A DNA stretch of 64,000 nt from a virus (lineage: Duplodnaviria > Heunggongvirae > Uroviricota > Caudoviricetes). Under the pieces are notes generated by a model. It was not told where the DNA came from. It saw nothing but the letters and a program-made list of their open reading frames with translations, and did not search any database. A program made the position numbers and the translations under genes. Of the stretch, positions 14,251 through 57,903 are shown in pieces; position 1 is the first letter of the stretch; every line of letters begins with the position of its first letter. Location of the stretch: IMG/VR virus record IMGVR_UViG_3300027994_000001, positions 57,776 to 121,775 of that record. The stretch is one strand, 5' to 3'.

Positions 14251-15042
14251 CTAATTATTTTTACAATACTTACATTCAGGCTGTATTATTTCTCCAGTTT
14301 CTCTTACTCTATATCTCCATAAGAAGCCTTTATACGATGCCTTCCAGCCATTACAAGTAGATAGCAAAGGACTAGTTTTGTAATTAGGGTTCTTTTCCAA
14401 TAGTTCTAACCTATTTTCAAAAGTCTCTAGTATTTCTCCGGTTAATTTATCTATTTTTAAATATTGATATAAATTATGATGCTCTGAGACCTTCTTCCTC
14501 ATGTCAATTTTTAATTGAGGATTTTCTTCCCATCGTCTATTTCTTTCTTCAATCCCTTTATATGTATTTGCAATATCTATTTTTAGCAAACCATTTGAGT
14601 GTCCTTCTTTTTTAAGATCTGACATGTATTTCTTTTGCTCATCTGACCAATAATTACCAAAGTTAGGATTATCCTCACCTAGAAATTTTCCTTTATATTC
14701 TCTTGACATCTTGTCTCGTTGCCATTGCTCCATTTTTCTACCATGTGTAGATTCTCCACCATTAGTAAGATTCAATAAATTGCCACCACAACAATCGGCT
14801 CTTTTATAATAAGCAATCAAAAGAATTTCTAATTCACAAGCCTCTTCTTTAGTTAAACCTGTAGTAAGTATTTGAACTTCATAATTAGAACAAATTTCAA
14901 TAAATTCTTTCCATTTTTTACTTCGATGTTTTTTATTATAAGGTCTTTTAAGATTATTTCCTATACCAATATAAAATACCATTCCTTCTGAAGTTAGGTG
15001 TCTATAGATACAATAAGGTTTTTCTTTCGTATTTTTATTCAT
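14251..15042 (-). CDS. GIY-YIG homing endonuclease
   Basis: CIYRH...VFYIGIG (GIY/YIG), conserved Arg, EEACELE glutamate, NLTNGG Asn block; long basic C-terminal DNA-binding extension. Lies immediately 3' of the DNA polymerase gene. Confidence 0.75.
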   Translation of the reverse strand: MNKNTKEKPYCIYRHLTSEGMVFYIGIGNNLKRPYNKKHRSKKWKEFIEICSNYEVQILTTGLTKEEACELEILLIAYYKRADCCGGNLLNLTNGGESTHGRKMEQWQRDKMSREYKGKFLGEDNPNFGNYWSDEQKKYMSDLKKEGHSNGLLKIDIANTYKGIEERNRRWEENPQLKIDMRKKVSEHHNLYQYLKIDKLTGEILETFENRLELLEKNPNYKTSPLLSTCNGWKASYKGFLWRYRVRETGEIIQPECKYCKNN

Positions 15043-17146
15043 TTTTTACCTTAGTTTTAGAAGGTTTTATTTCTTTTGGTTCGCCATGAATATCAGATAA
15101 ATACTGTCTCCAGTAAGTGTTATATTGTAATTCTGTGGGTATTTTTGAAATTATAAATTTGAGATAATTTTCTTCTTCTCTTTCTCTTTTCTTCTGTTCG
15201 ATTAAAGCTTTCCTTTCAGCTTCCAATCTTTCCTCTGTTCCATCTACACTGTGAATAATTCGAAAAGCTTGATTGATATAATAATCATAATCAACTTCAT
15301 AATTTTCAGATTTATAATAATCCATAAACATTGAGATTTTACTACCACCAACTGTTATTTCTTTACGACCATCATTATAATTTTTTCGCAAATTATCACC
15401 GTTAGTTGAAACATAAAATCTAATTACTTTATCGTTGATATTTTTTATAATATTTTCCTCATCATCTTCTAATGTATAATTCTGATTACTTTGTATCTTT
15501 TTACCTATACAAAAATCATATATCCCTTGATTCTCTATTTTACCGTAATTACCTACTGATAAATGATTTTTAACTGTTTCTTCTACTGGCACATTGTGAA
15601 TAAAATATCTCATAACTGCAATTTGTACAATTCTTTGACTACGATTTTTATGCATTTCTACATCAATTTCAAAAGCGCCTTTCATTTTTAATTTACCATT
15701 TGTATCAATCCCCAGGTAATTATTTATATCACGGGTAAACAATTTATCATAAACTGAATATTCTAATTGTAATTCAGTTAGATTTTCAATTGATACACAG
15801 GTATTATATACTTCTCTTTTTTTATCTTTAGGTACAATTAACTCAAGACCATCGGTATTTGCCATTACAATCTTAACACCTTCTATTTTAGAGAGCTGTT
15901 CACAGAGCATTGAAAGTATTAACTGACCATTTACTGTGATAGCCATTTGAAATAATTTATCGTAAAGAAAACTGTATTCATCGCCTCCTTTACCAAAAGC
16001 CGCATTTAAAAGTAACTTAATTGCCGTATTTTGAGGGTTTGATTTAGGAATTAATTTACGTTTTTCAAACAATTCTTCATATAATACACAAAAAGCTTCA
16101 GATAAATGTTCTGGGTAAAATCTATTTTTGATCGAGATATTTGGGTAAAAACTTGCAAAATCTATCGAAAGTACAATTTCTTTTTCATTTGAATTAAATA
16201 TAGAATTTCCTCTTGCAAAATGGAGGCCTCCTAAACCATAGAAATATTCACCTTCATCGAATACCATTAAATGTTTAAAAGCATCTTTAGTATCTTCGGT
16301 AATAATTTGTTCTTTAAAAAAGTCTAAAACAGAATTGAATTCAGGTGTTTCAAATTTAATATAAGGAAGAATTATATTTTTTAATTCAATTGTTTTACGG
16401 CGAGTTTGCATTTTCTTTAGTTTACTTTTTTCAATATCTAATTTCTCAGACATCAAATCTAAAAATAATGCTTCTCCAATACTACTATCTGATTTATTAA
16501 ATAATTCTAGATGAGGATTCTCCATCTGTTGAGTAAATCTTAATTCAACTAATTTTTCTGATTTCTTGAAAAATTCTTCTGTTGCGTCTACGTCATTATG
16601 ACAATAAAGAATAACATCGTCAAATTTACCTATTTCAAGAACTTCATCAAATTTATAAGGTAAATCTTGAACTTTTTTCCAGTTCATGGAGTACTCGATC
16701 CACTTTAAGCTACAAGATCTTGCACGATTATTGTAATGGTTCTGTAAAAATAAGTCTAACTGTTGACAAGATAATTTAGATTCTTGATATGGAGGAAATT
16801 CTTTTCTATTTATTTTTTCAATAACAGACTGAGCAAATTCCATAATATGTTTTGCCTTAGTTTTTCCTGTCAGTTTTTTAAATGGCTCTTTAGCTTCCAT
16901 TAACCATTGAAGGACTTGCGCATCAAATCGGCAATTATTGAATCCGATGAAAAACCAGCGTTTTAAAGCACCTTCTTTTAGAAAAGCTATTAGTTCTTCA
17001 TACTGATCTTTTCTCTCGCTTATTTCGAATGTTTTATACCTTCCTTGATATTTAAATACAACACAAAAGATACTTAGAAAAGTTTCAATATCATAAGTTA
17101 AGAATATTATTTGTTCTTTGTTCTCTTCTACTCCTTTATCTTCCAT
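15035..17146 (-). CDS. family B DNA polymerase with 3'-5' proofreading exonuclease (703 aa)
   Basis: Exo I YDIETF, Exo II GFNNCRFDAQVL, Exo III YCHNDVDAT; polymerase motif A IDFASFYPNI (DxxSLYPS), motif B KLLLNAAFGK (KxxxNSxYG), motif C MANTDGL (DTD). Confidence 0.85.
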   Translation of the reverse strand: MEDKGVEENKEQIIFLTYDIETFLSIFCVVFKYQGRYKTFEISERKDQYEELIAFLKEGALKRWFFIGFNNCRFDAQVLQWLMEAKEPFKKLTGKTKAKHIMEFAQSVIEKINRKEFPPYQESKLSCQQLDLFLQNHYNNRARSCSLKWIEYSMNWKKVQDLPYKFDEVLEIGKFDDVILYCHNDVDATEEFFKKSEKLVELRFTQQMENPHLELFNKSDSSIGEALFLDLMSEKLDIEKSKLKKMQTRRKTIELKNIILPYIKFETPEFNSVLDFFKEQIITEDTKDAFKHLMVFDEGEYFYGLGGLHFARGNSIFNSNEKEIVLSIDFASFYPNISIKNRFYPEHLSEAFCVLYEELFEKRKLIPKSNPQNTAIKLLLNAAFGKGGDEYSFLYDKLFQMAITVNGQLILSMLCEQLSKIEGVKIVMANTDGLELIVPKDKKREVYNTCVSIENLTELQLEYSVYDKLFTRDINNYLGIDTNGKLKMKGAFEIDVEMHKNRSQRIVQIAVMRYFIHNVPVEETVKNHLSVGNYGKIENQGIYDFCIGKKIQSNQNYTLEDDEENIIKNINDKVIRFYVSTNGDNLRKNYNDGRKEITVGGSKISMFMDYYKSENYEVDYDYYINQAFRIIHSVDGTEERLEAERKALIEQKKREREEENYLKFIISKIPTELQYNTYWRQYLSDIHGEPKEIKPSKTKVKNE

Positions 17147-24429: not shown

Positions 24430-25539
24430 TTAAAACGGAGAATTCACATCCTCTTTATCATCACTACTCCCAAAAGCATCATTAAGACTCATCAAAGGTG
24501 TCGGTGGAAACTTCTCTACTGTAAATGCTTCATTGTTGAAGACAGGAACGGTTGTTGAGAATGTTGGTGTATTAGTTGGATATTTATTTTTAAGCTCATC
24601 TGTTTTAAATATTTTTTCCGCGAAAACATCCTGAATATCTTTAATATCTGCATTTCTTCTTTTTAAATAAAAATAATACGAGACTCCTAAAGGCTCAAAA
24701 CTTGCTGTATTCCCGTTGTCGGAGTATAACTTATAATCTTCCAGCCAATCATAGCTATCTTTTCCAAAAATCATAAATTTATCCCTGATTCCTAATCTCC
24801 ACGGTAACATTTTAATATAAAGTACGTCGCACAGTTTAAGAAGTTGTCCCGAACCATACACATCTGATTCAATAGGTCTTTGATTTTTTATATTGTCTGC
24901 TCTCAGAATATAATTATCATTCATTTGATTGAGAATTATGAAGCAAATATAAGGATGTAAACCTTTAAGCCTATTAATTTCATACAGTAATGCATCCATA
25001 GCTGTCTTTTGACTGCCTTTTTCATCTAATACATTTTCCAGGTTATCAATAGAAACTACAATTTTTTTATCAGGGTATTTGGTGATAATACTTTCAATGT
25101 CAATAGCAAACTGCTTGGCGTTGACAGGTTCGTTCTGGTAATAGATATTATCATTCCTATGAGATTTACAAATTTCAGATAACTTCTTTAATTCCTCTTC
25201 TGATGGGTTGTTAAACAAAACCTGATCCATTGTTTGTCCTGTCCTTTGACAAATATCCCTAACTAATATTTTAAAAAACGTTAACTCCCAATTACAATTT
25301 ACAATTACAACATCATCTTGAGTATCAAGTAAGTGTCTTTGTATCCTTTCTAAATCATAGCTTTTTCCGTTTTGGGATCTTGCAATAATACCTAGAATCG
25401 TGGAAGGTAATAACCCACCCATCAAAACCTTATCTAAATGTGGAATTCCTACAGAAATTGGTTTTATCTCTCCCGTCTGAAACTTATTAATTAATGTTAC
25501 TGTGCTATTTGTAAGTTCTGTAGATTGGTATAAAGCCAT
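24430..25539 (-). CDS. DnaB-like replicative helicase (RecA-fold ATPase domain)
   Basis: ISVGIPHLDKVLMGGLLPSTILGIIARSQNGKS matches the DnaB C-domain GxxTGxxxLDxxxxGxxxGxLxxxAxRPxMGKT block (Walker A); VVSIDNLENV is Walker B-like. Confidence 0.7.
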   Translation of the reverse strand: MALYQSTELTNSTVTLINKFQTGEIKPISVGIPHLDKVLMGGLLPSTILGIIARSQNGKSYDLERIQRHLLDTQDDVVIVNCNWELTFFKILVRDICQRTGQTMDQVLFNNPSEEELKKLSEICKSHRNDNIYYQNEPVNAKQFAIDIESIITKYPDKKIVVSIDNLENVLDEKGSQKTAMDALLYEINRLKGLHPYICFIILNQMNDNYILRADNIKNQRPIESDVYGSGQLLKLCDVLYIKMLPWRLGIRDKFMIFGKDSYDWLEDYKLYSDNGNTASFEPLGVSYYFYLKRRNADIKDIQDVFAEKIFKTDELKNKYPTNTPTFSTTVPVFNNEAFTVEKFPPTPLMSLNDAFGSSDDKEDVNSPF

Positions 25540-33492: not shown

Positions 33493-34431
33493 TTATATTG
33501 TTGCTAAAAATGTGTCTACTTCTTTTGTTTTTTTCTCTATTGTGGCTTTTGAATCTTGCTGATTATTGATGAAGTCATTTAAAATGTATACTCCTAAAAT
33601 CATTTCTCTAACAATCTCTCTATCACGTTTAGTTAATTTCTTCTTTTTCAACTGCTCTTCTAAGCCTGCTCTTATTTCCAAAGTCATTGCTTGTGATTTG
33701 TATAACTCTTGTAAAAAATTAACTGGTTTTACTGGCTCTACATCTTTAACTTTCTGTTCTACTAAGAGAGTCTTTAAAGGTGTTAACTCGAAAAGTTTTC
33801 TATGTGTTTGTGACAGCACCTCTATCTTTTTTATCGCCGAAATCTTCAAAGCCTCAAAATTCTCAGAATTATAGTAAGTAAACTCGTCTTCATAGGGAAT
33901 TATTCCCTCTTTATCTATATTTAGAATACTTGCAATTTCTTCTAATGAAAAAGAATAACGCCCTGCCCCCTTATAATATTGTTTCAGATCAAATCCAGAC
34001 AAATTCCAACTTTTTAAACCCTTGTACTTTAAGTCTGGGTGTGGAGGATTCAAATGACTGTTAGCATCTAATCTCACTCCAATATAAGGTAATACAATTT
34101 CGGCATCAAAATGGACTAGGTTATATTCTTGAAACTGTGTTTTAACCAGATTAACAAAATTCTGTAGTAAATCCACTTCTGTTCCTATAATATATTTAAC
34201 TCTGAGTTCACCATTGTGCTCAAAACCAATGATAATTGATGTTATAGCGGAAAAAAGAGGATTGCGCCATGCATTTAATCTAAACTTATCTTCTAATTCT
34301 TCATCCTCATACAATTCTCTCTGTTGATAATCCTTTTTGTATTTATTTTGAAACAATTGCAGCTCTTTGTCTGTAGGTACGACTGTTTGACTTGATTGGT
34401 AACTCCAATATAATACTTTTTTACTTTCCAT
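33493..34431 (-). CDS. hypothetical protein, possibly degenerate RNase-H-fold / PolB-exonuclease-like
   Basis: Weak Exo II-like NLVHFDAEIVLPY; no clear Exo I. Located between the PD-(D/E)XK and DnaQ-like nucleases. Confidence 0.3.
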   Translation of the reverse strand: MESKKVLYWSYQSSQTVVPTDKELQLFQNKYKKDYQQRELYEDEELEDKFRLNAWRNPLFSAITSIIIGFEHNGELRVKYIIGTEVDLLQNFVNLVKTQFQEYNLVHFDAEIVLPYIGVRLDANSHLNPPHPDLKYKGLKSWNLSGFDLKQYYKGAGRYSFSLEEIASILNIDKEGIIPYEDEFTYYNSENFEALKISAIKKIEVLSQTHRKLFELTPLKTLLVEQKVKDVEPVKPVNFLQELYKSQAMTLEIRAGLEEQLKKKKLTKRDREIVREMILGVYILNDFINNQQDSKATIEKKTKEVDTFLATI

Positions 34432-34434
34432 AAT

Positions 34435-35199
34435 TTATTCTTTTCCTAATAATTGTTTAATTTTAATTTTTGTTTCCGCAGGGAAGTCCTTACCGAGCAT
34501 CCAGTTGGCAAATCCAGGATTATCAACTACTGAGAGGTTTACATCCTTTCCAAAGCCATACCTGATAATCCTATCTTTATCTACATACAGACTTCCGTTA
34601 AGATCAAATCTTCTTTGCTCTCCTTGTAAATATTCGTCTATATCTTTTATAGTTTCAATTGGTGTTTCAGATTGTTGAATTAACACAGGTAATAAAATAT
34701 CCGCAATTTCCTTTGTGGCTTTTATATCAAAGACAGCACCATGCGCTCCCTCTAATTCTTTTCCTGTCAGTCTTTTATAAACATCCGATAAAGTATTAGG
34801 AAATAGTTTTCTATATAATTTTAAAATATCATATAAATTAGGATTCCACGTAATTCCTTCCAAACCTGCACGCTCGAATTCTGCTGATAAAAGTGGTACA
34901 TCATATTTATCTGAATTGAATCCCGCTAGATCACACCCACCAAACCATTTTCTAATAGCTTGGGCGTATTGTTTAAATACAGGTAAATCTTTCACCATGT
35001 CATCTGTTATTCCATGAACTTCCGAAGCTTCAACAGGAATTGGTATTTCTGGATTTACCAAAATTGTTTTTTCCTCTTGTGTGCCATCAGGATTATACTT
35101 TATACATGCTAATTCAATGATTCTTGCTGTCTGTGTTTCTACAGACGTGCTTTCAATATCAAAAAATATAATAGGTTTTTCTAATTTCATAATCTCCAC
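34435..35199 (-). CDS. DnaQ-like (DEDDh) 3'-5' exonuclease
   Basis: Exo I FFDIESTS, Exo II AGFNSDKYDVPLL, Exo III AHGAVFDIKAT. Confidence 0.8.
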   Translation of the reverse strand: MEIMKLEKPIIFFDIESTSVETQTARIIELACIKYNPDGTQEEKTILVNPEIPIPVEASEVHGITDDMVKDLPVFKQYAQAIRKWFGGCDLAGFNSDKYDVPLLSAEFERAGLEGITWNPNLYDILKLYRKLFPNTLSDVYKRLTGKELEGAHGAVFDIKATKEIADILLPVLIQQSETPIETIKDIDEYLQGEQRRFDLNGSLYVDKDRIIRYGFGKDVNLSVVDNPGFANWMLGKDFPAETKIKIKQLLGKE

Positions 35200-35269: not shown

Positions 35270-35632
35270 TCATTTTTCCACAGAAGGCGAGCAGGAACGA
35301 AGGAATGACACGAGGTAAAAGAACACAGAGAACAAACGGAACTCGTCCATATAGAACCAAGTATAATATTTTCTTTCATTCGTGTTTTTAAAGTTTGGAA
35401 TCCACCCTTTATTGTAAAATGCAGCCAACATAGCTTCTTGTTCATAATATTTTACATGTAAAGGGATATTTTTATAGAGTTCATCAAAATCCTTTTCTGT
35501 GGTTTTATGGTACTCGAGTACTTTTTGGAAGCTATTATAAACCTCTCTAAATACAATTCTATCGAAAGTAGATCTTTCTTTATCTATTTCAAATCCTTTT
35601 GGAACTTCAATTTTCAATTCTTGTGTTTTCAT
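35270..35632 (-). CDS. small protein carrying a second, degenerate DGR variable-repeat copy at its C-terminus (candidate secondary or decayed target)
   Basis: C-terminal FRLFSVFFYLVSFLRSCSPSVEK is encoded by VR2. The pre-VR segment KYYTWFYMDEFRL is paralogous to KYFPWWYLGKNFRL in the primary target. Confidence 0.5.
   Translation of the reverse strand: MKTQELKIEVPKGFEIDKERSTFDRIVFREVYNSFQKVLEYHKTTEKDFDELYKNIPLHVKYYEQEAMLAAFYNKGWIPNFKNTNERKYYTWFYMDEFRLFSVFFYLVSFLRSCSPSVEK
35279..35341 (-). repeat. VR2: VR-like repeat diverged from the TR at adenines and carrying two 1-nt insertions
   Basis: Hand-aligned to TR 36662..36722: about 20 substitutions, all at coding-strand TR adenines, plus two single-base insertions. 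It shares the GC-enriched 3' block CTCGCC(T)TCTGTG with VR1. Confidence 0.6.
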
Positions 35633-36584
35633 TTTCGTATTTATTTACTAAGTTTTTACTATTACAGTGGACTAACCAACTCTTATGATTTTTCTTTACT
35701 TTATTTTTAATATATTTTTTCTTAATTGACTTTCTTATCAGAGTATGTGTATGATAATGTTTATATCCCAAAAAATCAATGCTCCGTGCACTTACTGGAA
35801 AAACTTGATAATTTCCTTTTATTTCCAACTTTAGTTGTGTTCTCAGATAGTCTTGGATATTATAAAACCACTCCCATAATTGTTCTTTATTATCTGAAAG
35901 TAAAACCATATCATCACAATATTTGAAATAATATTTTACTTTTAAAACCTCCTTAATCCAATGATCAAAATATGTCAGATAGAAATTTCCAAAAAATTGA
36001 CTTGTGAAATTACCTAATGGAACTCCACTGTGAGAATCTATAATATCGTCTAATAAATATAGCAAATCATTATCTTTAAACTTTCGCCGTAACATTCCTT
36101 TTAATATCTCATTATCTATGTTAGGGAAAAATTTCTTAATGTCTAGTTTAAGGCAGTATTTTGTCCCCTCTGTGTCTTTCAATACCTTTCTTAATTTATA
36201 AGAAGCTTGGTGCACACCTCTTCCCTTCACACAACTATATGTATCAGCGGTAAAAACAGATACAAAAATAGGCTCTAAAATATTTAGTATGGCGTGGTGT
36301 ACAATTCGATCAGGATAGTAAGGCAATTGTGATATTGTTCTTTCTTTTCCATCGGATATTGTAAATACATTATATCTAGACGTTGTAAATTTTTTATCAC
36401 TTAAAGTTTTGTGTAAATTTAAAATATTATCTTCTTCATTCTGTAAATGTTTTATTACTCCGTATTGTTTTAATTTCCCTCTTCTTGCTTTCTTATCTGC
36501 TGACTGTAAGTTTTCAATGTTGATTATTTGCTGGTATAAATTATTGTGTCTTTTCATGCTCTGTGTATATAAACTCACTTTCAA
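35607..36584 (-). CDS. diversity-generating retroelement reverse transcriptase
   Basis: RT motifs LDIKKFFPNID, GVPLGNFTSQFFGNFYL (the DGR-specific [I/L]GxxxSQ in place of the retroviral QGxxxSP), YFKYCDDMVLL (YxDD) and IDFLGYK. About 325 aa, adjacent to a TR/VR pair. Confidence 0.85.
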   Translation of the reverse strand: MKVSLYTQSMKRHNNLYQQIINIENLQSADKKARRGKLKQYGVIKHLQNEEDNILNLHKTLSDKKFTTSRYNVFTISDGKERTISQLPYYPDRIVHHAILNILEPIFVSVFTADTYSCVKGRGVHQASYKLRKVLKDTEGTKYCLKLDIKKFFPNIDNEILKGMLRRKFKDNDLLYLLDDIIDSHSGVPLGNFTSQFFGNFYLTYFDHWIKEVLKVKYYFKYCDDMVLLSDNKEQLWEWFYNIQDYLRTQLKLEIKGNYQVFPVSARSIDFLGYKHYHTHTLIRKSIKKKYIKNKVKKNHKSWLVHCNSKNLVNKYENENTRIEN

Positions 36585-36661
36585 TTACTTTACTAACGAG
36601 TCTTTAAGGCTTTTATTTATTTTTTACCGAGAGGTAAAGTGTTTTTACTTATTTTAAAATC

Positions 36662-36722
36662 TACAGATGTGAGTAGGAACGTTGGAATTATTCGAGTTAT
36701 AGTTCACATTGTTCAAACGGAA
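36662..36722 (-). repeat. DGR template repeat (TR), 61 bp, intergenic between target stop and RT start
   Basis: Coding-strand read TTCCGTTTGAACAATGTGAACTATAACTCGAATAATTCCAACGTTCCTACTCACATCTGTA is rich in AAC/AAT codons. It matches VR1 at 47 of 61 positions; every mismatch is at a TR adenine. Confidence 0.8.
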
Positions 36723-36740
36723 GGGGTAAAAACACTTGTT

Positions 36741-37304
36741 TTAATTCATATAATCTTTCCAAATATCTTTAAACTGAGATGCTGAGTAATTTCCTAATTC
36801 GGAAGATTTGACACAGAGGCGAGAAGGAACGCAGGAACAATCCGAGTAATAGTTCACAGCGCCCAAACGGAAATTCTTACCTAAATACCACCAAGGAAAA
36901 TACTTATATTCGCTGTGATTATCCCAATCAAGTTCAATCCCATTATTTAGAGCCTTAGAAATAACTACAAGTTCTTGGCAAGCTACTACTTTTCTTTCTA
37001 AATTTGGTGTGTTTTTTAACAGCCTTAATTGAAGAACTTCATTATCTATCTCTCCCAACTGTTTACATGCATCCTCAACTGTCTTTATATCCTCCCAAGT
37101 GTCACGTACATCAAAAATCTCTTTAACAATGGGTAACTGCTCCGCTGTACAAGCTGTAATCATCTCGTTAATTTGTTTTTCTGTGAATTTTATTTCCGCG
37201 GAAAATGGATCTTCTGAGCCGAAAGCTTTTATTTTCTTCTTCCAAGAATCACAGGCAATATCGTGTATCTGTTTTAACTCTTCTCTGGTTATACTATTTT
37301 TCAT
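36741..37304 (-). CDS. DGR target protein (187 aa) with variable repeat near its C-terminus
   Basis: VR1 encodes FRLGAVNYYSDCSCVPSRLC, against the TR-encoded FRLNNVNYNSNNSNVPTHIC. The ORF stop lies 19 nt upstream of the TR on the coding strand. Confidence 0.75.
   Translation of the reverse strand: MKNSITREELKQIHDIACDSWKKKIKAFGSEDPFSAEIKFTEKQINEMITACTAEQLPIVKEIFDVRDTWEDIKTVEDACKQLGEIDNEVLQLRLLKNTPNLERKVVACQELVVISKALNNGIELDWDNHSEYKYFPWWYLGKNFRLGAVNYYSDCSCVPSRLCVKSSELGNYSASQFKDIWKDYMN
36812..36872 (-). repeat. DGR variable repeat VR1
   Basis: Ungapped 61-bp alignment to the TR at an offset of +150. 14 mismatches at + coordinates 36812, 18, 20, 24, 32, 33, 38, 39, 42, 48, 59, 60, 62 and 63, all opposite TR T on the + strand (A on the coding strand). 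Confidence 0.8.
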
Positions 37305-37306
37305 AA

Positions 37307-38086
37307 TTATTTATTTAAAATCATTTCTTTAATATCCTGAACATGCTTACTTCCCCATTTTTGCAGAGCGTATCTAGCTTTGGCTTCAATAATTGAAATC
37401 AATGGAACAATTTTATAAGTAAAGCCTTTATACTCCAATAGTTCGTATTTCTGGTTAGGATCGATTCTTACATCAGCTTTAACGCCGTCAATATAGATGC
37501 TTTCATTATAGTCCGAACTTGAAAATCTATCTTCACCGCTTTCAATATCTAATCCATCAGCCTTAAGAATTTGGTAAAACGGTAGAATAAAATCATAATC
37601 CGCTTCTCCGTCTCTGAATCTTTCAAGTCTCACACCTTGTAAATATAAACTGATACTGCCACCTACTATAAGATTAGGATTGCTTTCCTGAAGAGTTTTT
37701 ACAGTTGATAAGTGCATAGCTTCGTCTAGTCTTTCAGATTCTTTGGCTTTTCTAATCTCTTTTAATTCTTTTTCGCCGATTTCTTCTAAAAATTTAATAC
37801 ATCTTGTGGTGTTTTTATGAGTGTCTTCTTTAAATTCACCTAAAATTTCTATTTTAAAAAATCTATTTGAACCATTATTACTGTAATGGTTAAACACTTC
37901 ATCAAGCTCATTCCAATAACTTATAGCTTTACTTGAATCTAATTCTAACTTAGATTTGATTACGTTATATCCTTCTGGTAATTCTTGCGTTTCTCCCTTA
38001 TCGTCAATGTAGTAAGTTTTACCTATTTCAAACTGCACTTTATTGAGCTGCATGTTATTATCTGTTCCTTTAAATCCTAATTTCAT
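37307..38086 (-). CDS. hypothetical protein (259 aa) immediately upstream of the DGR target
   Basis: Long minus-strand ORF with its stop 2 nt from the target's ATG; no recognisable motif. Confidence 0.45.
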   Translation of the reverse strand: MKLGFKGTDNNMQLNKVQFEIGKTYYIDDKGETQELPEGYNVIKSKLELDSSKAISYWNELDEVFNHYSNNGSNRFFKIEILGEFKEDTHKNTTRCIKFLEEIGEKELKEIRKAKESERLDEAMHLSTVKTLQESNPNLIVGGSISLYLQGVRLERFRDGEADYDFILPFYQILKADGLDIESGEDRFSSSDYNESIYIDGVKADVRIDPNQKYELLEYKGFTYKIVPLISIIEAKARYALQKWGSKHVQDIKEMILNK

Positions 38087-38285
38087 ATAATAATGTATTT
38101 AATGTTTTCTTCTGTTTCTTTTACTTCTCCCTGCTCCAGAATCTGTTGTGCTGTTTCTGGATGTATTTCGTGGATTAACGCAATTGTTACGCCCATATAT
38201 ATGACCTTCATAAGTTTGTTTTTGAATCTCTTTCCCGCAAATGTAAGTTATATATTTTAATCTCGCAATAGTTTTTGTAAAAATA

Positions 38286-39209
38286 TTAAAAATTTCCATA
38301 TTCAACCTGAAAAACTTTCAATCCGAGTGCCCTAGCTCTTCTACAAACGGAATTTCTATCGTCTATTAAGGTAAGAATGTAGTTATTTTTCGCTATTTCT
38401 TCCCACAATTCCATTTTTACTATATCATCTGACCTAAAATCTCCTGATTTTCTCATATATAAGGTTATTTCAACATCTTCAAGATCTAATTCTAGATTAT
38501 CTCTTAACCATTTTTCTGTTTCTTCTCTACAACCCTCATCTCGACCCGAACAGAAAATTAATTCTGGCTGGTCTAAAGTCATATACAAATGTGCAAAAAG
38601 CTCTGCTACAGGAAAATCCAGTTTATCTTCTGAGACTTTTTTCCAGTCAAAAGGGCTTCTATTTCCCATATGTGCGAGTGTCCCATCAATGTCAAAAACG
38701 TAGCAAGCTGGTTTTTCTATGTCATTCTCAAATACAATAGGTTCAAAATCTTTTACAGGAATACCTTGTCTTTGCAGTTCCATATATTGATTGTGCTGTC
38801 TTTTTATTACTTCTGCTCCAACACTTCTGTTTCTTTTTGAATCTCTTTCTATTGCTTTTTCCGGCGAAATATCAAAATATTTGTAGCTTATTGGCACATT
38901 CCAATACTGAAACCTATCAAGGAACTCTTTCTTAAGGTGTGTGGCATCCACTAATACAGTTTTATTTTCTGCTAATCCTTCGTGAATTAAAACATCTTCA
39001 TACTTTGTTACCTGTTTTTCTAACTTAGAGATGTCTGGTCTGGAATAGTATTCTTTAATTGACTCTTCTGAGAAAGAAAACATCAATTCTCTGATTTTGT
39101 CCCGATTTACTACCAATACCCCTGTTGGATTTGCTCTCCATTGTTCGTGTGCATACGTCGATTTACCGCTGCCGGATATTCCCACTAAAACTTCTATCTT
39201 TTTACTCAT
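38286..39209 (-). CDS. pnk: polynucleotide 5'-kinase/3'-phosphatase (T4 Pnk-like)
   Basis: N-terminal P-loop GISGSGKST; C-terminal HAD phosphatase motif VFDIDGTLAH (DxDGT) and downstream acidic HAD blocks. Confidence 0.8.
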   Translation of the reverse strand: MSKKIEVLVGISGSGKSTYAHEQWRANPTGVLVVNRDKIRELMFSFSEESIKEYYSRPDISKLEKQVTKYEDVLIHEGLAENKTVLVDATHLKKEFLDRFQYWNVPISYKYFDISPEKAIERDSKRNRSVGAEVIKRQHNQYMELQRQGIPVKDFEPIVFENDIEKPACYVFDIDGTLAHMGNRSPFDWKKVSEDKLDFPVAELFAHLYMTLDQPELIFCSGRDEGCREETEKWLRDNLELDLEDVEITLYMRKSGDFRSDDIVKMELWEEIAKNNYILTLIDDRNSVCRRARALGLKVFQVEYGNF

Positions 39210-39879
39210 AATGAAATTGTCTTGTGTTATTTGCTTGAAGCATTATATTTAATAAATCATCATCTGTTTCTTGGATATAATAATTCTCCAATAAGTGATT
39301 CTGATACATGTCGGAGGCTTTTTGTCTTAGATAACCTTCCATTTCTATGCAATACTTTTTATCCTTTAAATTCAAAGCTATTTTCTGTATTTCTTCTTTT
39401 TTCGGCAAAATATTATCAATCAAACACTCCGCAATATAAAGGCTTCTATTAGCGTGAAATAATTTGTTTTTATTGTTATGTAGTTTTAAATCCCGTTTTG
39501 CAACTCCGCAATATGCTCGAATGAGCTTAAAAGTTCTGCATGTCTTCAAAACTTGCTCTCCAATCCTCTCATTTCCCCCAGTAAACAGTAAAATATCAGA
39601 ATGAATTGTACCATCACCACTCTTTAAATTAGCCCAAAACTGTTCTTCTGAAACCCAAATATATTGAGAGTTGTTTTCTAAGTCATCATATTGAAAACTA
39701 TGAATACTCGGTAAGCCGTTGACCTTTTCTTTAAAAACACTATCGTAATTATATACTCTCATATAATCATAGTCACTGTCTTCCTTGTTTGTACCGAAAA
39801 GCCTTGATCCAAATTCATATTCAATGTATCTGGATTTATTAAGCCGTTCGTGTTGTTCTTTTGTTATTTTTATGTTCAT
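39202..39879 (-). CDS. Pol-beta-superfamily nucleotidyltransferase-domain protein (paralog 1)
   Basis: FGSRLFGTNKEDSDYDYM fits the NTase signature hG[GS]x9-13Dh[DE]h. Confidence 0.5.
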   Translation of the reverse strand: MNIKITKEQHERLNKSRYIEYEFGSRLFGTNKEDSDYDYMRVYNYDSVFKEKVNGLPSIHSFQYDDLENNSQYIWVSEEQFWANLKSGDGTIHSDILLFTGGNERIGEQVLKTCRTFKLIRAYCGVAKRDLKLHNNKNKLFHANRSLYIAECLIDNILPKKEEIQKIALNLKDKKYCIEMEGYLRQKASDMYQNHLLENYYIQETDDDLLNIMLQANNTRQFHYE

Positions 39880-40541
39880 ATCAATAATTTTAGTTCCTCT
39901 AATAAGTCAGTGTTAAAACAGTTGTGTTTTTCAAGAATTTCTTTTATACTTCTTAACTTTTCTGTTTGTTTTTCTATCGGGTTTAGCTTTTTAAACTCCG
40001 TGGCCTTACTATTAAACAAAGTCCTATACTTATCATTTATTTTATCCCACAATTCTTGCCTGTCATGATAAGCTGATAATTTATATAAGTCTCTTAGCAG
40101 CCAATTCATATTTGAATAATCAAGTATCTTACCTTCTCTCATAATTTGAATTGCAAAATCTAATATCCTAATAGAATGAAATATAGATTTAAGTGCAATA
40201 TCTAAGTCATAATCTCCGATAACAATAAGTTTCTTTTTTCCTTTAACCCAACTATTTGATGTTAACATTGATATATTTCGTCTAAAGGATTCTTTATTTA
40301 TATCAACTGTTGGGAATTCCCACTTATAAACTTCAAAGGTACTCTTATCTGCAAAATAAACTTCTAAACAAGCAATATCTCCGTTTTTAACAGCCGTTAT
40401 AAAAGATTCTTTAGTAAAACAGTGAATATTTACATCTTCTATTTTTTCTAGTTCGTCTTGTATCACAATATAATCATGATCAGATTTTTCTGAATGGCTT
40501 CCGTACAGTCTACTACCAAATAAGCATTTGTTTAAAATCAT
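39876..40541 (-). CDS. Pol-beta-superfamily nucleotidyltransferase-domain protein (paralog 2)
   Basis: FGSRLYGSHSEKSDHDYIV is the same signature; similar length and a 4-nt overlap with paralog 1. Confidence 0.5.
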   Translation of the reverse strand: MILNKCLFGSRLYGSHSEKSDHDYIVIQDELEKIEDVNIHCFTKESFITAVKNGDIACLEVYFADKSTFEVYKWEFPTVDINKESFRRNISMLTSNSWVKGKKKLIVIGDYDLDIALKSIFHSIRILDFAIQIMREGKILDYSNMNWLLRDLYKLSAYHDRQELWDKINDKYRTLFNSKATEFKKLNPIEKQTEKLRSIKEILEKHNCFNTDLLEELKLLI

Positions 40542-41530
40542 AATCTTTCAAATTTAGGTTTAATAGCCTTCCAAATTACTTGGGAATAGTCTTTATCATT
40601 ATACATATTGAATAAAATTCCTGACAAAGAGTACTTTAAAGCATCTAAAGCAAACTGTTTTTTATCTGTTGTATTAATTATTTTAAATACATATTTATAT
40701 TGGGCTTCTATTAAAAGATACTCTGACCACAACTTTTCAACAAATTCATCGACTTTATTATAAAATTCATCTGGAACTCCTTCTAAAATACTCATGATAT
40801 CATCACCGTTCTTTAAACATTCCCAAACAGAGGTTGTAGATACAGCTGTCATAATTCTGTGCAATCTCAAATACTCGTCACCTTTTATTTTACATCTTTC
40901 TCCATTATAAAACCTTACAACATATCCTTCTTCTGTTTCTTTTATTTCTTTGTTTAATTCTTTTAGTGGCGTTTTTGAATCAAAATTTTTTACTTTGTTA
41001 GGAAAATGAACCTCTTCTAAACTTTTTTCCACACCGGACTCAGTTTCAAATACTCCTGTTAAAATAACTCCTTCAAACTCCCCATAATCACATACAATTC
41101 TGTTGTTTTTATAGATTATCTCAAAACAATATGTATACTCTTTACTGAATTCACTGTAATCAGAAATAGCTTCTAAAAATTCTCTACCTTTAAGAGCTTG
41201 ATCAGATGTAAATGAACCGCGGGAAGCAAAAACCCAAGAATCATCATAATAGAATAAAATACCTAATGAACCATCAAGCTTCTCGTAAATATCATATTTA
41301 TCACATATATTAGTCTTACCCTCTGATAGATTAAAAAACTTCTTGAAAGGCTTAGCTACTACATTTCCTTTATCATCTGTTACAAGTCCTCTGCACATCA
41401 TTATGATATCGTTCCACAAGCTTTCATATTGAACTTTATCTGAATAGTTCCATATAAGTAATGGGAGTGTTGGGTGCTTCTGTTTGAAAACTAAACCTTT
41501 TTTTTCGTATTTTAACAGTATGTCTAACAT
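40538..41530 (-). CDS. ATP-dependent RNA ligase, Rnl1-like
   Basis: Nucleotidyltransferase motif I KxDG present as YEKLDGSLGILFY, resembling T4 Rnl1 KEDGSL; about 330 aa, adjacent to the pnk block. Confidence 0.65.
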   Translation of the reverse strand: MLDILLKYEKKGLVFKQKHPTLPLLIWNYSDKVQYESLWNDIIMMCRGLVTDDKGNVVAKPFKKFFNLSEGKTNICDKYDIYEKLDGSLGILFYYDDSWVFASRGSFTSDQALKGREFLEAISDYSEFSKEYTYCFEIIYKNNRIVCDYGEFEGVILTGVFETESGVEKSLEEVHFPNKVKNFDSKTPLKELNKEIKETEEGYVVRFYNGERCKIKGDEYLRLHRIMTAVSTTSVWECLKNGDDIMSILEGVPDEFYNKVDEFVEKLWSEYLLIEAQYKYVFKIINTTDKKQFALDALKYSLSGILFNMYNDKDYSQVIWKAIKPKFERL

Positions 41531-43784: not shown

Positions 43785-44342
43785 TTACCTGCCGTATCCA
43801 AAAGCCACACTAATTGTCTGTGGGTTAAATTTGAATGTTGTCGTTATAAAATTCTTCTTTATTTTGATAAAATACTTTAGTCCTGCGTCTATGTGTGTTA
43901 CCCTTGCTTCTGAAACTTTACTGTTGTTTATGAAAGTTAAGTTTTGATAGTTTGTTACTCCTGATAGTAAATACAGTTGTTTTAACCAGCATGTTTTACA
44001 GATGCTTACTCCAAAGTTTAAACTTACTGCTCTTGTTTCTGTTTTTAAAGTTTTTTCTCCGCCGAAATTTAAATTTTCTGTTTCACAATTACAATCCGCT
44101 GTTATGGGAGTATCTGTTTTATAAATCCTATTTCCTGACATATAATTAGAATGCTCCGCCCCCAATAATAAATCATTTAAATATTCTCTATTCTGATCAG
44201 TTTTTATAATGAAATTTAAACCAATCAAATAACCTGTGTTTTTATCCTCACTCAATACAGAGCCGGTATAAAGCTCATAATTCTGGCTGTATACCGATCC
44301 TGTAATAAGAAGAGCTAATAAAAGCTTTTTCATTAGTTGCAA
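43785..44342 (-). CDS. outer-membrane beta-barrel-type protein with signal peptide
   Basis: N-terminal MQLMKKLLLALLITGSVYSQ signal; alternating hydrophobic/Tyr-rich pattern typical of small OMP beta-barrels; C-terminal FGYGR. Confidence 0.45.
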   Translation of the reverse strand: MQLMKKLLLALLITGSVYSQNYELYTGSVLSEDKNTGYLIGLNFIIKTDQNREYLNDLLLGAEHSNYMSGNRIYKTDTPITADCNCETENLNFGGEKTLKTETRAVSLNFGVSICKTCWLKQLYLLSGVTNYQNLTFINNSKVSEARVTHIDAGLKYFIKIKKNFITTTFKFNPQTISVAFGYGR

Positions 44343-45271
44343 TTAGGATAATTAGGGCAGTTCTCTTCAACCCAATTCTGGAAAGAAAATACTAATTTGT
44401 TTTCACTTGTGTATGGACTCGGTGCTTTGTCTTTACTTACTGTATAAATACATGAAATAGAAGTAGAAGCTTTAATCAATTGCTCTACTGTATAAATAGT
44501 GTGAAGATTGTTATTGTTATTAGGATATGGCGTTACATCAACTGTGTAAACCACTTTATTTCCCGCAACTGATAACTCATTACTCCACTCGAAAGAAGCT
44601 AAACCACTGCCGTTGATTTTTGGGCCGCTATTTGTCGCTAATAATGTTCCTGTAGAATTATAAATCTTAGCTGTAATTGTTGCAGCATAGTTGTTTTTAA
44701 AACCGGAATCACTATCTAATTGAAATACAGTCAGCAATCTGCCGTAAACTGTAGTCATATTAATACTTACAACATTATTTGTCTGTAAAATATCCTGTGT
44801 TTTATTTCCTGTATACAAGACATAAGGAATATGCGTTTTTAACGACGTTAGTCTGTCTTCTGCTGAGCCACTGGCTGTAACTAATTCAAAATATTTAACC
44901 GCAGTTGTTTCTGTTGAAGCCGTAAAAGTGTTATTACCTACCGCCACATCTGTTAAAATAAAGTTTTCGTCTGCTCCGGCTGTGTTGTTTGCTACAATAT
45001 TCCACTGATCTTCTTTTGCATAAGCAGGTGTACTGTTATAAACAGCTTTAACTTTGATTACACTAACTGAGGCTGGAATATCACCGCGTTTAATTGACTT
45101 CCCTGTTTCATTTGTTGGCTGCTTAACTAAGAGTGCAACGTTTGTTTTTTGAATTGGTAATTGTGTTGTCTCTGTCTCATCTGTTGAGCAAGACGCTAAT
45201 AATAAAATAATCCCCAATGCCAGTACTAATCTGTTTGTTTTCATGTTCTTGTTTTTAATTGTTTTGCGCAA
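44333..45271 (-). CDS. surface lipoprotein (312 aa)
   Basis: Signal peptide with lipobox LLLASC; Thr/Ser/Asn-rich mature part; Cys-rich C-terminus CPNYPNCN. Overlaps the downstream OMP gene by 10 nt. Confidence 0.55.
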   Translation of the reverse strand: MRKTIKNKNMKTNRLVLALGIILLLASCSTDETETTQLPIQKTNVALLVKQPTNETGKSIKRGDIPASVSVIKVKAVYNSTPAYAKEDQWNIVANNTAGADENFILTDVAVGNNTFTASTETTAVKYFELVTASGSAEDRLTSLKTHIPYVLYTGNKTQDILQTNNVVSINMTTVYGRLLTVFQLDSDSGFKNNYAATITAKIYNSTGTLLATNSGPKINGSGLASFEWSNELSVAGNKVVYTVDVTPYPNNNNNLHTIYTVEQLIKASTSISCIYTVSKDKAPSPYTSENKLVFSFQNWVEENCPNYPNCN

Positions 45272-57558: not shown

Positions 57559-57903
57559 TTATTTGTTTTCCGCGAATTCCTCATCAAACAACTCACTGTC
57601 ATCTCTATCGCACCAGCATCTTGAACAATACCACTCTCTTGAATAAGTATCTGCATCACATTCTGGGCAGTATTCTATGTTATCAATAGTGTTTACTTTG
57701 GTTATATCGTATTTCCAATGCGCGCAGATATCTTTTCTGTGAACGTCTCTTTCTCTTGGATATAAACTGCAAACAAATATAGTATCTTCGGAACTCCTGT
57801 CATTTTTATCTTCATAAAGAAATTTCCCATTATTATCATATACACTGAATGGTAGTTTTCTTTTTGCGTACTTACAAGAAGAACAGCTGACTTTTAATTC
57901 CAT
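57559..57903 (-). CDS. cysteine-rich zinc-ribbon protein
   Basis: Multiple CxxC pairs: CSSC, CPEC, CSRCWC. Confidence 0.4.
   Translation of the reverse strand: MELKVSCSSCKYAKRKLPFSVYDNNGKFLYEDKNDRSSEDTIFVCSLYPRERDVHRKDICAHWKYDITKVNTIDNIEYCPECDADTYSREWYCSRCWCDRDDSELFDEEFAENK

Follow-up and report, generated by a model that had tools for sequence, protein, structure and literature searches.

A probable RNA repair operon in a Caudoviricetes phage, with two Pol-beta nucleotidyltransferases between a T4-type RNA ligase and polynucleotide kinase

When a phage carries a T4-type polynucleotide kinase and a T4-type RNA ligase separated by two further genes, do the genes in between belong to the repair machinery or are they passengers? 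The question is raised by positions 38286-41530 of a 64,000-nt stretch of DNA (the window) taken from the Caudoviricetes record IMGVR_UViG_3300027994_000001 (positions 57,776 to 121,775). A first-pass annotation of the window had flagged a polynucleotide kinase (Pnk) and an Rnl1-like ligase in one co-directional run, with two extra genes between them. The number of extra genes was right, but their nature had been missed, as both encode Pol-beta nucleotidyltransferases (NTases) of the RNA-ligase-associated kind, making the block a four-enzyme cassette. We consider it quite likely that the block is a phage RNA repair operon of a heal-fill-seal type, with tRNA as its most likely substrate. The two genes in between are probably part of it.

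Gene layout and the two T4-type enzymes

Both flagged open reading frames (ORFs) were found exactly where they had been placed, on the minus strand, which had not been named before. The Rnl1-family ATP-dependent RNA ligase gene (40538..41530, 330 aa) comes first and is followed by exactly two genes, those for the Pol-beta superfamily nucleotidyltransferase NT-A (39876..40541, 221 aa, with a C-terminal helical domain) and the divergent RlaP-clade nucleotidyltransferase NT-B (39202..39879, 225 aa). The gene for the T4-type polynucleotide 5'-kinase/3'-phosphatase (38286..39209, 307 aa) is the last of the block. All four genes are co-directional, and their stop and start codons overlap throughout. 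The ligase stop and NT-A start overlap as ATGA (junction read TTATGA), as do the NT-A stop and NT-B start (junction read ATATGA), and the NT-B stop and Pnk start overlap by 8 nt at the junction ATGAGTAA. Because all three junctions overlap, we read the block as a single operon for healing, filling and sealing, and co-expression of its genes is implied. Independent gene calling on the metagenomic source contig (Logan SRR8536160; its longest copy is 138,637 bp) gave the same four products (330, 221, 225 and 307 aa). A sigma-70 promoter scan, which covers promoters of that type only and thus may not suit a different host, gave 69 matches compared to 61 ± 9 in shuffled sequence, and a terminator scan gave 6 compared to 4.5. 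As neither count rises above that of shuffled sequence, the scans are silent on the operon boundaries.

The Pnk product is, by its sequence, a full-length T4-type polynucleotide kinase/3'-phosphatase, and its activity on RNA is predicted. The two motifs quoted in the first-pass annotation are present, GISGSGKST at residues 10-18 and FDIDGTL at residues 172-178. The protein matched the Pfam families AAA_33 (1.9e-16) and HAD_PNKP (PF25109; 1.3e-39, 136 bits compared to a cutoff of 27.6 bits, profile positions 1-143 of 143) and aligned end to end with the PHROG 505 polynucleotide kinase profile (3.5e-78). Among solved structures it matched T4 Pnk (1LTQ; 2.1e-30, query residues 3-307 on chain residues 2-301) and, over the full length, Pnkp1 of Capnocytophaga gingivalis (4XRP; 1.3e-28). 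Active-site residues were mapped by a MAFFT alignment with T4 Pnk, to which the protein is 32% identical (90/280), and five phage homologues. The kinase residues K16, S17, D37, R40 and R126 correspond to K15, S16, D35, R38 and R126 of T4 Pnk, and R122 is also kept. In the phosphatase half, the DxDGT residues D173, D175 and T177 are present, and R184, R223, D261 and D283/D284 answer R176, R213, D254 and D277/D278 of the T4 enzyme. With S221 and K265 also found, every kinase and phosphatase residue examined is in place. The end-to-end alignment with T4 Pnk and the kept residues assign the ORF to the Pnk family and not to another P-loop kinase family, the outcome that had been named as one that would overturn the initial call.

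The ligase product is a member of the T4 Rnl1 family by sequence. It matched Pfam RNA_lig_T4_1 (PF09511) at 5.5e-18 (66.1 bits compared to a cutoff of 28.3 bits), PHROG 562 (T4 Rnl1) at 2e-67 (residues 9-328 on profile positions 19-365 of 377) and the T4 Rnl1 structures 2C5U (9e-16), 5TT6 and 9DO4 at about 1e-15. The NCBIfam equivalog model TIGR02308 scored 71.1 bits, below its cutoff of 242 bits, which marks the protein as a distant family member and not an equivalog or orthologue-level match. Its identity to T4 Rnl1 is 27% (86/321), and its closest cultured-phage homologues, from Streptomyces, Tenacibaculum and Arthrobacter phages, are about 36-37% identical.

All the ligase motifs could be located on the T4 Rnl1 alignment. 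Motif I, quoted earlier as KLDGSL, lies at residues 84-89, with K84, D86 and G87 equivalent to K99, D101 and G102 of T4. Motif Ia is S103-R104-G105 compared to SKG in T4, in which R104 replaces T4 K119; this change is conservative and common to four of the six other aligned phage homologues. Motifs III (F-E137-I-I, E137 being T4 E159), IV (E201-G202-Y-V) and V (K214-I-K216) are all present, so that the absence of these three motifs, named beforehand as grounds for rejecting the ligase, was not observed. The Rnl1-specific residues R47, K64 and F66 (T4 R54, K75 and F77) are kept here and in 6/6 of the other phage Rnl1 homologues aligned. The C-terminal all-helical domain gives T4 Rnl1 its tRNA specificity; in the window ligase, the matches to PHROG 562 (up to residue 328) and TIGR02308 (residues 43-320 on profile positions 49-355) extend into the C-terminal part, where pairwise similarity is weak. 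The profile searches that the first-pass annotation had proposed as a check thus match for both Pnk and Rnl1, and both family matches are far beyond chance.

The nucleotidyltransferases in between

The Pol-beta nucleotidyltransferase signature stands at the N terminus of both intervening products (NT-A, FGSRLYGSHSEKSDHDY; NT-B, FGSRLFGTNKEDSDYDY), and each product falls below all Pfam thresholds when taken alone. Homologue sets of 90 proteins for NT-A and 73 for NT-B were aligned (alignments A1 and A2, respectively). The GS...D.D motif and a third acidic residue are invariant in both, as G9, S10, D21, D23 and E60 across 57 NT-A homologues and as G24, S25, D36, D38 and D95 across 51 NT-B homologues. 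The invariant acidic residues indicate that NT-A and NT-B each keep a full catalytic triad. When the two profiles were compared with each other, they aligned at 97.6% probability over 65 columns, covering the NTase core only.

NT-B is, on profile evidence, a divergent member of the RlaP clade. More of its homologues match RlaP (PF10127) than any other Pfam family (19/51 at E ≤ 0.01, best 1.2e-7), and in NT-B itself the match to PF10127 is restricted to the N-terminal motif. By hhalign, the NT-B profile aligned at 99.5% (E 2.6e-23) over 179 columns, spanning both the NTase and the helical domain, with a protein from a related locus (L014:5205-6023) that scores above threshold on PF10127 (43.2 bits).

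NT-A belongs to a viral family that its profiles place near to but separate from RlaP and outside the Pfam RlaP model. Its homologues match PF01909 (NTP_transf_2; 50/57) and PF18765 (47/57) and less often RlaP (4/57). The NT-A profile aligned with the L014 RlaP at 93.7% over 125 columns, including a common K..FH..R helix motif, and with T4 NrdC.11, which is the T4 RlaP (PMC12776372), at 95.2% over 69 columns of the core only. A search of 1.84 billion representatives of clusters at 50% identity found 487 members of the family at E ≤ 1e-30.

The AF2 models of both proteins (pLDDT 96.2 for NT-A and 92.0 for NT-B) are confident and pair an alpha/beta NTase domain at the N terminus with a helical domain at the C terminus; in NT-B a beta-sheet core (residues 18-77) is followed by helices (residues 78-216). 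The crystal structure of PfRlaP is reported to have this two-domain architecture as well (PMC12776372). In BFVD, the best neighbors of the NT-A model were giant-virus and jumbo-phage nucleotidyltransferases (TM-score 0.65-0.71). The fold occurs in amoebal giant viruses, as in A0A5K0U7I7 of Yasminevirus (1081 aa) and A0A3G4ZN96 of Terrestrivirus (794 aa), with TMq values of 0.66-0.71, and some of the giant-virus matches are parts of large fusion proteins that carry endonuclease V or exonuclease annotations. These fusions suggest that the NT-A family works with nucleic-acid-processing nucleases outside phages too.

An antitoxin role can also be considered. One of the two NTases, most plausibly NT-A, might be an MNT-like enzyme that nucleotidylylates a HEPN-type anticodon nuclease of the host, while Pnk, NT-B and Rnl1 repair the damage. 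The nuclease domains of PrrC and RloC belong to the HEPN superfamily, the NCBIfam MntA adenylyltransferase antitoxin model matched NT-A at 0.0096 and NT-B at 0.11, and MNT/HEPN structures appeared low in the fold-search list. Those matches, however, span only the generic GS...D.D core and lie far under the 60-bit cutoff, and MntA proteins (~100-140 aa) lack the large C-terminal helical domain found in both window NTases, in which NT-A has the K..FH..R motif in common with RlaP. No HEPN partner was found nearby in the Pfam and PHROG annotation of the window genes. We give the antitoxin explanation very little credence.

Linkage to RNA ligases and a proposed repair pathway

Related loci, designated by L numbers here, were gathered by exact-protein look-up and pattern scans of IMG/VR. 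All of their ORFs were scanned with hidden Markov models built from A1 and A2 and with phmmer queries for repair enzymes, and neighbors left unresolved were checked with Pfam. An RNA ligase was present in 11 of 16 distinct NT-B loci, usually directly upstream and ending at the NT-B start codon. The ligase is of the Rnl1 type (PF09511) in the window, Tenacibaculum phage pT24, L009, L010, L011, L016 and L028; in L017, L019 and L021 it is a PF09414 ligase that has an OB domain at its N terminus and is of the Bacillus phage PBC2 gp157 type; and in L012 it is a Pnkp-type ligase (PF16542, PNKP_ligase) accompanied by Hen1.

Most of the ligase-bearing NT-B loci also have an end-healing kinase with a HAD or metallophosphoesterase phosphatase. 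The identity of the end healer varies: some loci have T4-type Pnk, and L011, L012 and L021 combine a kinase that stands by itself with a metallophosphoesterase. In L011 (5009-7750), L021 (4687-7739) and L016 (4985-7306), the place of T4-type Pnk is taken by a protein resembling metallophosphoesterases and, after it, a separate kinase of ~150 aa; as Pnk is replaced there while the ligase and NT-B stay, the end-healing module is swappable. Arthrobacter phage Bauer and Streptomyces phage StarPlatinum likewise have the ligase ahead of Pnk, and in Tenacibaculum phage pT24 the two genes are close together with Pnk upstream.

NT-A adjoins NT-B or RlaP in the window, L012, L014, L018 and L019 and is one gene apart in L033, with the order shuffled between loci. 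Bacillus phage PBC2 carries it 1.4 kb upstream of an RNA ligase and a Pnk. Of the three cultured phages that encode NT-B, two (Vibrio phage 2.275.O and Salicola phage SCTP-2) also have an NT-A gene at another genomic site. Elsewhere NT-A stands alone, near tRNA gene clusters, or near genes for an R2K ATP-grasp protein, a CCA-adding enzyme or NAD synthesis. Because NT-A is often found away from ligases, its link to repair is looser than that of NT-B.

Two of the related loci are particularly rich in repair genes. Positions 6001-10827 of L012 (NCBI GCA_050655915.1, a 266-kb contig of jumbo-phage size) encode, in this order, NT-A, an NT-B-like protein, Hen1_N, PNKP_ligase, a free-standing kinase and a metallophosphoesterase. 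Here the NTase pair known from the window stands ahead of a Pnkp/Hen1 repair system of the bacterial type in split form. Positions 4176-12653 of L019 (IMGVR_UViG_3300045684_000009) encode three Pol-beta NTases, namely NT-B, NT-A and an RlaP like T4 NrdC.11; the locus also encodes an RNA ligase of the PF09414 type, a kinase and a metallophosphoesterase.

The linkage bears directly on the possibility that Pnk and Rnl1 alone form the repair pair and that the NTases are passengers, producing, for example, HalB-like nucleotide or oligonucleotide signals that blunt host immunity or modifying small molecules as ANT enzymes do. Among solved structures, both models come closest to Hailong HalB (9DBJ), which is an oligodeoxyadenylate synthase, and to ANT(4')/KNTase, NT-A matched the NCBIfam HalB model weakly (2.9e-4), the genes between rnlA and pseT of T4 are functionally unrelated, and NT-A frequently occurs apart from ligases. 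Yet the HalB match of NT-A (NF051895) reaches only 20.5 bits compared to a cutoff of 190 bits and reflects the common NTase core, NT-B has no match to that model, and the TM-scores are low (0.37-0.46). PADLOC returned no match among the four block proteins, and the neighbors are a ligase and Pnk, with no HalA partner. NT-B following RNA ligases of three families, and the NT-A/NT-B pair standing before Hen1 and a Pnkp-type ligase in L012, are hard to explain unless their function is tied to RNA ligation, and all junctions of the block overlap. We regard a passenger role as unlikely.

The repair operon that we favor would work in three steps. In the healing step, the HAD domain of Pnk would take off the 3' phosphate of a cleaved RNA, and the P-loop kinase domain would phosphorylate the 5'-OH. 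If the nuclease had also excised one or two nucleotides, as RloC-type enzymes do, the Pol-beta nucleotidyltransferases would then restore them at the 3'-OH, with NT-B acting in an RlaP-like manner and NT-A probably doing the same or a related job. In the sealing step, the Rnl1-type ligase would join the 3'-OH and 5'-phosphate using ATP, through a lysyl-AMP intermediate at K84.

Biochemical work on RlaP gives the filling step its precedent. According to the account of Burroughs and Aravind (2016) given in PMC7824862, linkage to RNA ligases is what defined RlaP, and the family was predicted to put back nucleotides that had been excised. Purified RlaP puts one or two nucleoside monophosphates on RNA 3'-OH ends, with a requirement for the 3'-OH and a preference for Mn2+; it favors the 5' half of a cleaved-tRNA mimic, is inactive on DNA and partly rescues the aminoacylation of a tRNA short of one anticodon-loop nucleotide (PMC12776372). 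Among RlaPs, this activity is known for the Pseudomonas enzymes only. Nucleotide addition of this kind could offset the action of nucleases that cut and then remove a base. As the RlaP product ends in a 3'-OH, it suits a 5'-phosphate ligase such as Rnl1. It is reasonable to suppose, as the first-pass annotation did, that the host lineage deploys tRNA-targeting nucleases, and the block hints that these remove bases as well as cut.

Several observations weigh against the repair operon. Taken as single sequences, NT-A and NT-B score 13.5 and 15.5 bits on the RlaP model (PF10127), below its 23-bit cutoff. The solved structures nearest to the two models are not RNA-repair enzymes and lie at low TM-scores (0.37-0.46), and no RlaP entry was among the matches of a PDB fold search with either model. 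In other phages, NT-A often has no detectable ligase nearby. No tRNA or tmRNA genes were detected in the 64,000-nt window. Finally, a heal-fill-seal scheme leaves the need for two NTases unexplained.

One answer to the last point would be that NT-A and NT-B form a dedicated two-enzyme fill module, as a heterodimer or with complementary nucleotide or substrate specificities, that rebuilds the one or two nucleotides excised by RloC- or PaOrf2-type anticodon nucleases. We put this forward tentatively and judge it somewhat doubtful. If it were true, the block would encode a four-enzyme heal-fill-seal pathway, and NT-A would found a second, so far undescribed family of RNA-ligase-associated NTases.

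The cassette might instead serve phage RNA or DNA metabolism outside counter-defense, in transcript processing, in tail-fiber attachment like that by T4 gp63 or through kinase and 3'-phosphatase action on DNA ends in replication or repair. DNA ends are substrates of T4 Pnk in vitro. The annotation of T4 Rnl1 includes catalysis of tail-fiber attachment, PHROG 562 carries the category 'tail', and the block is set in a region of DNA replication and repair genes, among them those for a DNA polymerase, a helicase and exonucleases. The tail-fiber function of gp63, however, is T4-specific, non-catalytic and without a recognizable sequence signature, and the conserved partners of the block genes are RNA-specific (RlaP, Hen1 and Pnkp-ligase). 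RlaP is inactive on DNA (PMC12776372). A role of this kind appears very unlikely. Each of the three alternatives to a repair operon draws weakly on likeness at the level of core motifs and runs contrary to the ligase linkage.

Genomic setting and comparison with known systems

The window has ~31% GC, GC skew is negative in every 2-kb bin and all 34 window ORFs of at least 150 aa are on the minus strand. No Rfam families were detected in the window. A megablast search of the 5-kb block against 50,697 phage records gave no match, indicating that this phage has no close cultured relative.

The repair block is followed directly downstream by a diversity-generating retroelement (DGR; 35607-37304, minus strand). 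Its reverse transcriptase gene (35607-36584, minus; PF00078 1.5e-16, PHROG 1423 1e-108) encodes the motif LGNFTSQ, which we take to fit the DGR-type (I/L/V)GxxxSQ signature. The template repeat (about 36663-36722, minus) is a 60-nt intergenic segment, and the variable repeat (about 36813-36872, minus) lies in the sequence encoding the C terminus of a 187-aa protein (ORF 36741-37304, PHROG 11581). The two repeats are 78% identical, and 13 of 13 mismatches are at template adenines, read on the coding strand.

Between Pnk and the DGR target gene are a gene for a 259-aa DUF7666 protein (37307-38086, minus; PF24703 4.8e-11, PHROG 33731 1.9e-41) and a 42-aa ORF (38083-38211, minus). The DUF7666 gene was considered as a fifth component of the cassette and rejected, having no homologue in any other repair locus searched. 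As neither it nor the 42-aa ORF has a homologue at those loci, both are probably unrelated to the cassette. Farther downstream, beyond the reverse transcriptase gene, two consecutive genes for DnaQ-like 3'-5' exonucleases (33493-35199, minus; RNase_T 3.6e-22 with PHROG 192, and PHROG 25228) lie within a replication module that also holds genes for a DnaB-like helicase (24430-25539, minus) and a DNA polymerase (15035-17146, minus).

On the other side of the block, two adjacent genes for secreted proteins (43785-45271, minus) encode a 312-aa product with a lipoprotein-type signal, LLLASCSTDETE, and a 185-aa product with an N-terminal signal peptide. In the 312-aa product, the lipobox cysteine is followed by acidic residues that resemble the Bacteroidota surface-lipoprotein export signal. 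On the hint of this signal the phage probably infects a Bacteroidota host, consistent with the presence of Tenacibaculum phage pT24 among its nearest relatives.

Of the known systems, the closest is the T4 pair pseT/rnlA (gp63), annotated as tRNA repair genes for restrictive prr hosts. Both window enzymes are homologous to their T4 counterparts over the full length (32% identity for Pnk and 27% for the ligase), all catalytic residues are kept except for the one ligase lysine changed to arginine, and the pair is on the same strand and in the same order, with the ligase upstream. The T4 arrangement is rnlA, alc, pseT.3, pseT.2, pseT.1, pseT, in which the intervening alc and pseT.1-3 are unrelated to repair and the T4 RlaP (NrdC.11) is ~80 kb away; the window instead has two NTases between ligase and Pnk, with overlapping junctions.

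With RlaP (PF10127), NT-B shares the NTase and helical domains, the three acidic catalytic residues and RNA ligase neighbors of several families. Unlike RlaP, NT-A and NT-B fall below the Pfam threshold, and they are two distinct NTases in tandem instead of one. The characterized Pseudomonas RlaPs are encoded in RtcB-RtcA operons, whereas the partner in the window is a 5'-phosphate ligase of the Rnl1 type. Compared to the bacterial Pnkp/Hen1 and Pnkp1-Rnl-Hen1 systems, the window Pnk matches Pnkp1 of Capnocytophaga gingivalis, and L012 has the NT-A/NT-B pair directly before Hen1 and PNKP_ligase. The window itself has no Hen1 methyltransferase in a Pfam scan, so repaired junctions would not be 2'-O-methylated, and its ligase is Rnl1-type and not Pnkp-type. 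Hailong HalB and ANT(4')/KNTase have the NTase and helical-domain architecture in common with NT-A and NT-B but differ in sequence (10-18% identity) and in structure (TM-scores 0.31-0.46), and the context in the window is RNA repair and not defense or antibiotic resistance.

Pnk together with Rnl1 is the classic T4 system; such repair systems are known from T4 and jumbo phages, and the block introduces no new principle. The linkage of RlaP to RNA ligases in phages, with a matching distribution of end-healing kinases and phosphatases, has already been published (PMC7824862). Only one feature is mildly new: an RlaP-clade NTase is repeatedly found paired with an NTase of a second family, one outside the Pfam RlaP model. 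To these precedents the block adds a compact, translationally coupled example of a probable phage RNA repair operon, in which a ligase, two putative nucleotide-restoring enzymes and an end healer make up one unit. RtcB, the ligase partner of the characterized RlaPs, needs a 3'-phosphate end, and the four small proteins of the block are a convenient set for testing how RlaP-type enzymes work together with 5'-phosphate RNA ligases.

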